Below, piece after piece: positions 7,624 to 7,669 of a stretch of 8,362 bases of DNA. The notes under the pieces are model-generated. The model saw only the letters and a list, made by a program, of their open reading frames with translations, was not told the origin of the DNA and did not search any database. Position numbers and translations under genes: made by a program. Every line of letters starts with the position of its first letter. Position 1 is the stretch's first letter. Source of the DNA: a virus (lineage: Duplodnaviria > Heunggongvirae > Uroviricota > Caudoviricetes); the IMG/VR virus record IMGVR_UViG_2675903621_000020, positions 1-8,362 of that record, one strand, 5' to 3'.

Positions 7624-7669
7624 TCCCCAACAACAAGGATCTTGTTAATCTGGATATCCCCAACAACAA
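7624..7669 (+). repeat. 13-bp direct repeat TCCCCAACAACAA (two copies, 33-bp period) immediately upstream of the Shine-Dalgarno/start of ORF 7684-8199
   Basis: Copies at 7624-7636 and 7657-7669. The second ends 1 nt before the AAGAG Shine-Dalgarno (7671-7675) of the GTG start at 7684. CAA-rich, so it may be a leader/regulatory element. Confidence 0.55.

Follow-up and report, generated by a model that had tools for sequence, protein, structure and literature searches.

The question raised by this locus is why two identical short sequences should stand directly in front of the ribosome-binding site of a prophage gene. The window, that is the whole stretch of 8,362 nucleotides analysed here, contains the 13-mer TCCCCAACAACAA exactly twice (Table 1), and a Shine-Dalgarno (SD)-like AAGAG begins 1 nt past the second copy, ahead of the GTG annotated by RefSeq as start codon. 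The original prediction, two exact 13-mers at a 33-bp period with the second ending 1 nt before the SD, is borne out in both points. Its label 'tandem' is imprecise, as the copies do not form a head-to-tail array: a unique 20-nt spacer separates the two direct repeats, and only 13 of the 33 nt of each period are repeated. A type III toxin-antitoxin locus (toxI-like) requires head-to-tail, whole-unit repeats of ~34-36 nt upstream of an endoribonuclease toxin; given the partial repetition, the variable downstream genes and the lack of a PADLOC match, this candidate was rejected. An exact 13-mer repeated within 60 nt occurred in 31 of 5000 simulated windows (first-order Markov); by chance alone the pair is only modestly unlikely, and on its own it is suggestive. 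We take it as real because of its conservation, the same pair being present in the same arrangement in 130 loci, on viral contigs and in nine genera of Enterobacterales. The repeats are also crossed by an open frame (7450-8199) that would read 'SPTT' twice. A coding role of this frame was ruled out, since relatives differ by frame-breaking indels of 1-2 nt between the conserved 5′ block described below and copy 1, and since the sequences of different loci are unrelated upstream of 7584.

The window belongs to a lambdoid prophage of the Qin/dicB type, as in E. coli O55:H7 and O157:H7, integrated beside tRNA genes and mtfA, and positions 6600-8279 are 100% identical to E. coli O55:H7 chromosomes. 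The minus strand encodes an integrase, a DUF4224 protein, an 805-aa exonuclease, a DUF1482 protein, DicB and the DicF sRNA (7317-7368; Rfam, 77 bits). The repeats sit between the DicF sRNA gene and a hypothetical gene on the plus strand, hereafter the cargo gene, which is antisense to the early-left (dicBF-type) operon. DicF and two tRNAs were the only known RNA families in the window at the Rfam gathering threshold, and a search of 7369-7720 at E <= 10 gave no match. The N-terminal half of the cargo protein is coiled-coil-like, and a CxxC...CxxC is conserved; the protein was assigned to phrog_1244 (E = 1e-57), not to phrog_6399 or phrog_1301, and matched no Pfam, NCBIfam or PADLOC family. In L001, a relative free of insertion sequences, a DUF1391 (ydfA-like) gene, a repressor gene and cro lie to the right of the cargo gene. 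In L001 and two further relatives (L004, L278) the cargo gene is flanked on the right by the repressor and DUF1391 genes and on the left by dicF, dicB, exonuclease, xis and int, all of them on the opposite strand, which places it antisense in the early-left operon, with the immunity region on one side and genes of the recombination/kil type on the other. The copy in E. coli O157 Sakai is ECs_1504, at 1543707-1544222 in prophage Sp6. The Qin prophage of E. coli K-12 has dicF and dicB; the cargo ORF and the repeats are absent, and its similarity to the window stops at ~7593-7614.

The two repeats are part of a larger conserved element of ~105 bases, extending from 7584 to ~7688. A pattern search found the pair in more than 119 viral contigs and in prophage-like DNA of Scandinavium, Trabulsiella, Enterobacter, Buttiauxella, Atlantibacter, Sodalis, Kosakonia, Serratia and Pseudescherichia, so that the conservation check proposed with the original prediction came out in favor of the repeats. 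The left boundary is sharp: similarity between loci ends exactly at GCCTG (7584), and the sequences further upstream are unrelated. From there the consensus reads, in order, GCCTG(n)CTTTTnnCCACnTCAGGCnnnGGTGG, a short arm, copy 1, an AGGAT-like arm, TAATCT, GGATA and copy 2, followed after 3-8 nt by the SD and then by the start codon. The 5′ block contains two interleaved inverted repeats, GCCTG/CAGGC and CCAC/GTGG. Searched alone, it was found at 209 loci in front of 117 distinct first ORFs from more than 30 unrelated families. Throughout the family, a GTG or ATG stands at a short fixed offset past copy 2, in front of unrelated cargo genes; one type of ORF behind the element is the phrog_1244 family of the window, another is a very small ORF, rich in proline, with a phrog_6315 protein encoded behind it.

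A second conserved sequence, GGATATCCAGATTGTTAAAGAGC, is found at the 3′ end of the plus-strand unit and is shared by two kinds of cassette, type A and type B. In most relatives with type-A cassettes it is followed by a canonical plus-strand intrinsic terminator (AGCGTCC..GGGCGCTTTTTT); in the window a hairpin without a U-tract (8239-8262) replaces it. Because the ORFs are variable, the 3′ motif is shared and type A has its own terminator, the plus-strand unit is a self-contained, exchangeable cassette. The first 13 nt of GGATATCCAGATTGTTAAAGAGC are a perfect inverted copy of AATCTGGATATCC (7647-7659). A long-range RNA pairing of AATCTGGATATCC with GGATATCCAGATT (8214-8226) was considered and rejected, as a substitution in one partner is not matched by a compensating change in the other.

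What this element might be became apparent from annotated phages. The family consensus, run against them by blastn, matched lambda (J02459, 34394-34464), P22-like phages, SfIV and others, and the lambda ORF directly 3′ of the matched region encodes SieB (phrog_6399, E = 5e-113). An alignment of the window family with P22 and lambda (A2) has a mean column identity of 76%, with a nearly identical block; the block, the hexamer TAAnCT and CCCC.AC in both copies are invariant. P22 and lambda carry ACCCCTACAG twice, at positions that match the two TCCCCAACAACAA copies of the window, and the period is 34 nt in the P22 sas cluster. The promoter and leader of P22 sieB/esc and the sas antisense RNA are said to have been described by Ranade and Poteete in 1993. 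The lambda sieB promoter is reported to have been deduced solely via homology with P22. Literature searches for a mapped lambda sieB start gave author-name matches only.

Sas is a cis-antisense RNA of 105 nt that switches translation of the sieB mRNA from SieB to Esc (PMC12197685, PMC7067206). The sequence of its read cluster in P22 is given in Table 2 of a paper from 2026, and the published sas is the reverse complement of the same block and of two CUGUAGGGGU motifs (PMC13397905). Mapped on the P22 record, the reads extend from 2 nt past the SieB ATG leftward beyond the block; a sas of 105 nt would reach to the left edge of the block, where conservation ends as well. The record (BK000583) annotates the sieB promoter at 29690-29720, spanning copy 1 to the hexamer TAAACT, and, at 29727, a 'sieB RNA start site' that coincides with base 1 of copy 2; the SieB start lies 31 nt downstream of the RNA start, and Esc has an internal start. 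Taken as a whole, the element of the window is very probably homologous to the promoter-leader and sas region of P22 and lambda sieB.

Transferred to the window, the P22 features give the arrangement listed in Table 1. The candidate -10 hexamer is well conserved, a TAnnnT ending 5-7 nt before copy 2 being present in 75 of 78 distinct two-repeat sequences; the match to a -35 sequence is poor (TTCCCC). By homology, the cargo mRNA would start at ~7656-7657 and have a leader of 27-28 nt, the first 13 nt of which are copy 2. Copy 1 and the AAGGA that follows it would therefore be promoter DNA and not part of the mRNA. On the minus strand, the block corresponds to the 3′ part of P22 sas. The predicted sas-like RNA would contain UUGUUGUUGGGGA, the complement of the repeat, twice, and would overlap the 5′-terminal part of the cargo mRNA, including the start codon and little beyond it. 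The 5′ end of P22 sas may arise by processing of a leftward transcript or from a promoter of its own. No convincing minus-strand promoter for a sas-like RNA was found here, so that its 5′ end would need such processing. That transcription starts at copy 2, and that sas exists and acts as described, is shown in P22 (annotation and literature) and is carried over to the window by homology.

Table 1 Features of the element and its cassette in the window.
Feature	Position	Strand	Basis or remark
Conserved 5′ block GCCTG-CTTTTTA-CCAC-GT-CAGGC-GAG-GTGG	7584-7613	.	Nearly invariant in 57 aligned sequences
Hairpin 1, arms GGTCC (7612-7616) and GGATC (7637-7641), enclosing copy 1	7612-7641	.	Covariation
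Repeat copy 1, TCCCCAACAACAA	7624-7636	+	By homology -35/spacer of the promoter, upstream of the start
-10-like TAATCT (TAnnnT) of the putative cargo promoter	7646-7651	+	Aligns with P22 TAAACT, the 3′ end of the annotated promoter
Repeat copy 2, TCCCCAACAACAA	7657-7669	+	Predicted 5′ end of the mRNA (start ~7656-7657), by homology to P22
SD-like AAGAG (7671-7675) and GTG (7684-7686)	7671-7686	+	Sequence; RefSeq CDS start
Cargo gene, 171-aa hypothetical protein WP_000559929.1 (phrog_1244)	7684-8199	+	RefSeq CDS
3′ cassette motif GGATATCCAGATTGTTAAAGAGC	8214-8236	.	Conserved; shared by type-A and type-B cassettes
Predicted sas-like antisense RNA, ~105 nt	~7584-7688	-	P22 sas cluster transferred via alignment A2

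The sequence of the repeat is not the same everywhere. At least five repeat classes, TCCCCAACAACA, (T/A)ACCCCTACAG, TTCCACAGTCAA, CCCCAATGCAA and CCCCCACAA, occur downstream of one and the same block, and in every class there are two identical copies, 32-36 nt apart. Since the copies are identical in each of at least five classes, the two co-evolve. A further class of leader has a single hairpin and no repeats, and its covarying stem includes the SD. This repeat-less leader behind the same block could be taken to mean that the repeats are a functionless relic of a tandem duplication of 'hairpin + SD', the more so as the AGGA past copy 1 resembles the SD of the single-hairpin class; conserved boundary motifs of the cassette and mosaic breakpoints nearby would likewise fit a sequence that marks a boundary or a point of recombination in a mosaic cassette. 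However, the copies are exactly identical across nine genera and more than 100 loci although the spacer varies, and at least five independent classes have matched copies. This argues for selection and not for the decay of a relic, and we regard a repeat of this kind without function as very improbable.

Another way to account for copies that change together is a protein that reads both. The 13-mers are three helical turns apart and bracket the promoter, at -35 and +1, so that they could be sites of a sequence-specific DNA-binding regulator; the period of 32-36 bp is constant across the classes and the sites overlap promoter elements. However, the element is not accompanied by a linked gene for a class-specific regulator. 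The repeat class does not depend on the cargo, since phrog_1244 is found behind classes 1 and 3 and class 1 stands before at least three unrelated cargo families, and it is independent of the repressor as well: class 1 occurs with a DicA-like repressor in L001 and with a RacR-like repressor in O157 Sp6, on different prophage backbones. A host factor is disfavored by the presence of several classes in one host species, and the sites are direct and non-palindromic. We thus consider regulation by a DNA-binding protein unlikely. The independence of the class from both cargo and repressor type favors an explanation within the module itself, by interaction of RNA with RNA. We hypothesize that, within the antisense RNA, the copy-1 complement finds its match in copy 2, the beginning of the mRNA.

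Support for a structured element comes from hairpin 1. In alignment A3, four of its five pairs change on both sides (e.g., A-U in 30 sequences and U-A in 17), and its covariation score was reached by none of 500 shuffles. Duplex energies point in the same direction: with their own arms they are -7.0 kcal/mol in class 1 and -8.7 kcal/mol in class 2, as compared to -3.5 and -2.7 kcal/mol with arms swapped between the classes. Counts of wobble pairs do not tell which strand uses the hairpin. Folds of single sequences were no better than those of shuffles on either strand (z of -0.7 to +1.3), and RNAalifold returned only the GCCUG/CAGGC helix, without covariation. Both this helix and CCAC/GUGG are invariant and therefore hold no information on covariation. 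From the interleaved arrangement in the block we infer, on geometry, that an H-type pseudoknot is allowed, with loop lengths that are more classical on the minus strand; as a structural assignment it was dropped for lack of covariation support.

The original prediction had gone further and suggested post-transcriptional control of the downstream ORF by Hfq or CsrA, or by a translational enhancer. Control at the ribosome-binding site is in line with the homology to the sas-controlled P22 sieB leader and can be kept; the proposed agents are not supported as the conserved function, and the sequence comparison makes a sas-type antisense RNA the likely effector, not Hfq or CsrA. There are, to be sure, features that fit CA-rich 5′ UTR repeats which bind Hfq and/or CsrA, act as an enhancer or serve as a GcvB target. 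Five consecutive A-R-N triplets (AAC AAC AAU AAG AGU, 7662-7676) run through copy 2 and the SD and match the distal-face motif of Hfq described by Tree et al. 2014 (PMC4104026), with at least four triplets, single-stranded and near the SD. The cargo leader is predicted to be mostly unpaired, and C/A-rich leaders are known enhancers and GcvB targets, the latter with the consensus CACAACA (Sharma 2007/2011, as cited in PMC4104026). However, homologous elements carry unrelated repeats, such as ACCCCTACAG, TTCCACAGTCAA and others, at the same two positions, and the other repeat classes in the homologous elements compared are without ARN runs. CA or ARN richness is therefore not the conserved property, which speaks against Hfq binding or C/A-rich enhancement as the conserved function of the element.

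More specific sites did not fit either. The exact GcvB (R1) consensus CACAACA is absent from 7584-7700, and this target was rejected. ECs_1504 and its surroundings are absent from the 63 orphan Hfq-CRAC peaks and the top 100 Hfq-bound CDSs of O157 Sakai (tables of Tree et al. 2014, PMC4104026); as these lists are limited, their silence counts only weakly against Hfq. An anti-sRNA of the AgvB type was dismissed as well, because AgvB, with its conserved 3′ domain of 42 nt, lies downstream of PR′ in the late region (PMC4104026) and not at this locus. EcOnc13/32 lie in the late region of Sp3. CsrA would be expected to bind an A(N)GGA displayed by the loop of an mRNA hairpin, most often one that overlaps the SD. 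The GGA next to copy 1, which had been read as a CsrA-like context, lies upstream of the homologous start, and at 7637-7639 it is part of the 3′ arm of the covarying hairpin 1 and not of a loop; the SD AAGAG has no GGA. A transcription start downstream of both repeats had been named as an observation that would speak against the whole idea. The P22-homologous start falls in between: it coincides with copy 2 and leaves only copy 1 upstream. Altogether, we judge it improbable that Hfq, CsrA, GcvB or an enhancer explains the repeats. For the TCCCCAACAACAA class in particular, an auxiliary role of Hfq or as an enhancer is possible.

The sas-type reading can be put together as follows. The module from 7584 to ~7688 would front an accessory ('moron'-type) gene that lies antisense inside the early-left operon. 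From a plus-strand promoter with the -10 sequence TAATCT and with copy 1 in its -35/spacer region, transcription would start at copy 2, which would form the beginning of an unstructured leader ending at SD and GTG, and the cargo gene would be expressed from the repressed prophage. Leftward early transcription, which would take place only in an induced or superinfecting phage, would yield the sas-like minus-strand RNA. Complementary to leader, SD and start codon, this RNA would block translation of the cargo mRNA during the phage's own lytic growth. The block together with hairpin 1 would make up a structured, stable 3′ part of the RNA. We propose that the copy-1 complement, displayed at or beside the loop of hairpin 1, is a second stretch able to match the beginning of the mRNA. 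Such a second site would explain why the copies always change together. We consider a portable promoter-leader/antisense module, shared with sieB of P22 and lambda, a reasonably probable account of the full mechanism. That the element of the window makes a sas-like RNA, that this RNA represses the cargo gene and that the duplicated motif has the role just described are inferred from the comparison of sequences.

It is tempting to go one step further and to regard the twin repeats as the 'address' of a portable antisense switch for self-immunity, in which a hairpin of the sas-like RNA presents the copy-1 complement and so nucleates pairing with copy 2 at the mRNA 5′ end, the classes are specificity groups and one switch serves more than 30 unrelated gene families. 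We put this forward tentatively, as a possible but rather doubtful reading. If true, the classes would decide which induced or superinfecting lambdoid phages silence which gene of a resident prophage, and more than 30 accessory families, probably functioning in exclusion or abortive infection, would share a switch in an early-left hotspot. In the genome studied here the situation is complicated by the end of an IS3-family element, which begins at 8280. The insertion has probably cut the cassette, together with dicF and dicB, off from the leftward early promoter, and because of this separation antisense control may be disabled in this genome.

The findings concern a prophage sequence that is unannotated and very widespread, most lambdoid prophages of E. 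coli, Salmonella, Klebsiella and other Enterobacterales having it, and they connect it to an antisense system from 1993 that was known only for P22 sieB. They suggest that the promoter-leader/antisense module is a general platform in front of a highly variable gene slot. This gives a handle on how exclusion or defense genes expressed from a prophage are shut off during the phage's own lytic growth, and it makes ECs_1504 of O157:H7 Sp6 and its phrog_1244 relatives candidate exclusion genes. For genome annotation, it explains the conserved 'intergenic' block beside dicF. It also raises the question why two copies of a motif should co-evolve.

How does the element compare with known systems? The C/A-rich enhancers, GcvB sites and AgvB have in common with it a CA- and ARN-rich single-stranded stretch right upstream of an SD in an E. 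coli prophage, but the window lacks CACAACA, the CA-richness is not conserved and no Hfq peak is listed at the Sakai copy. 'Moron' cassettes bring a promoter and a terminator of their own, and the prophage expresses them (Juhala et al. 2000, cited in PMC4104026). The cassette described here is likewise an autonomous plus-strand unit of promoter, one or few genes and intrinsic terminator inside an operon of opposite orientation, and its slot is occupied by more than 30 unrelated gene families. Whereas classic morons bring unrelated signals, the promoter-leader of the window is a conserved, shared module with a predicted antisense partner.

The c4 antisense RNA of the phages P1 and P7 (immI), reportedly described by Citron and Schuster in 1990, is also a phage RNA that occludes a ribosome-binding site. 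The operon has two copies of its short recognition motifs, and heteroimmune phages have different versions of them, which makes c4 a precedent for repeat motifs as determinants of specificity. It has, however, no homology to the window in sequence or position, it is processed from the strand of its own target and acts on icd/ant, and Rfam gave no match to c4 in the window.

The closest relatives are the sieB leaders. The region upstream of lambda sieB (J02459, ~34394-34497) shows the same layout of block, hairpin, -10 hexamer and twin repeats, immediately followed by an exclusion gene in antisense orientation to pL; it differs from the window in its repeat class, ACCCCTACAG, and in its cargo, SieB. 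With P22 sieB/esc and sas, the window shares the block, the hairpin with copy 1, TAnnnT, copy 2, SD and start codon in the same order, the antisense position within the early-left operon in front of a gene that in the window, too, would be prophage-expressed, and two identical short direct repeats ~33-34 nt apart. The differences are in the repeat, TCCCCAACAACAA as compared to ACCCCTACAG in P22, in the neighbors, which are dicF and dicB in the window but ral and gene 24 in P22, and in the antisense RNA, which is predicted in the window. The cargo differs, too: phrog_1244 is unrelated to SieB and has no annotated or obvious Esc-type internal start, and inspection of the cargo gene by eye revealed none with an SD. 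The 'translational switch' of P22 may for these reasons not apply here. What is new is thus a sieB/sas-type leader module, as judged by homology, that has another repeat motif and fronts a cargo gene unrelated to sieB.

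The slot behind the 5′ block of the sas-like element looks like a diversity hotspot of the early-left operon. Across the 209 block-carrying loci (L001-L276), small proteins from more than 30 unrelated families occur in it, and the function of nearly all of these families is unknown. In the Qin prophage of E. coli K-12 (L005 1721-1842) an "empty site" is found at the position of the cassette: the similarity to the window ends at about 7593-7614 and, judged by eye, is back at the GCCGGATGC...TCCGGC hairpin (window 8239-8262).

In the window, the slot is occupied by a member of the phrog_1244 family. 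The N-terminal half of the family is coiled-coil-like and a CxxC...CxxC pair is conserved, and no match to it was found in Pfam, NCBIfam or PADLOC. Its position alone makes the protein a candidate for a role in exclusion or abortive infection. The gene is bracketed by a perfect inverted repeat, but the changes that its two ends show in relatives do not compensate for each other. The 3′ motif may serve as a boundary sequence, as a leftward promoter or as an RNase III stem. Type-B cassettes, present in L052, L073, L089, L028, L108 and others, have their first ORF 13-17 nt past the second direct repeat and encode a phrog_6315 protein of ~150 amino acids that is flanked on both sides by tiny proline-rich ORFs of 25-33 amino acids (e.g. 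MSYDYEERHMPPFKRPEPPPKPDDSD), the second of which (..IPNHAPPFPRPPAPQPKPK) comes after ORF2. Their polyproline stretches suggest that the tiny ORFs are EF-P-dependent or regulatory peptides.

Features of the window and their positions
Feature	Position (nt)	Strand	Remark
tRNA-Asn and tRNA-Ser genes either side of mtfA, by the prophage integrase	1766-1838, 2830-2916, 2972-3997	-, +, -	tRNAs annotated in L001 (IS-free relative)
DicF sRNA gene	7317-7368	-	Rfam RF00039, 77 bits
Linked block positions	7588-7590 and 7607-7609		columns 5-7 and 25-27 of leader alignment A3
13-nt inverted repeat, AATCTGGATATCC / GGATATCCAGATT	7647-7659 and 8214-8226		perfect; either side of cargo gene
Cargo protein, phrog_1244	7684-8199	+	O157 Sakai ECs_1504
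3′ motif, GATATCCAGATTGTTAAAGAGC	8214-8236		kept at end of both cassette types
IS3-family element, left end (TGAACCGCCCCGGG...)	8280-8362	+	

A leader class with a single hairpin also stands behind the 5′ block (L006 1739-1790 of E. coli BLR, L139, L164, L168 and L249). Here, the block is followed by one stem without the repeats; the arms covary (CCTTCTT/AAGAAGG, TCTTGGT/ACCAAGA, CCTTTTA/TAAAAGG) and the Shine-Dalgarno sequence lies inside the 3′ arm. Within the block itself, GCCTG-C always occurs with CAGGCGAG and GCCTGTC with CAGGCTCG; since there are only two states, this linkage could be a lineage effect or a structural contact.

DicF is encoded on the leftward side of the sas-like element at a distance of 216 nt. 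Both are on the same early-left transcript and, therefore, one precursor may be processed to two small RNAs, DicF and the predicted sas-like RNA. The IS3-family element, whose orfA starts at 8335 (MTKNTRFSP), stands between cassette, dicF and dicB on one side and DUF1391, repressor and leftward early promoter on the other; it is absent from O55:H7 USDA5905 (L001). The prophage attachment site is likely on the tRNA-Ser side.

Among the families found in the slot are SieB of lambda (phrog_6399) and SieB of P22 (phrog_1301).
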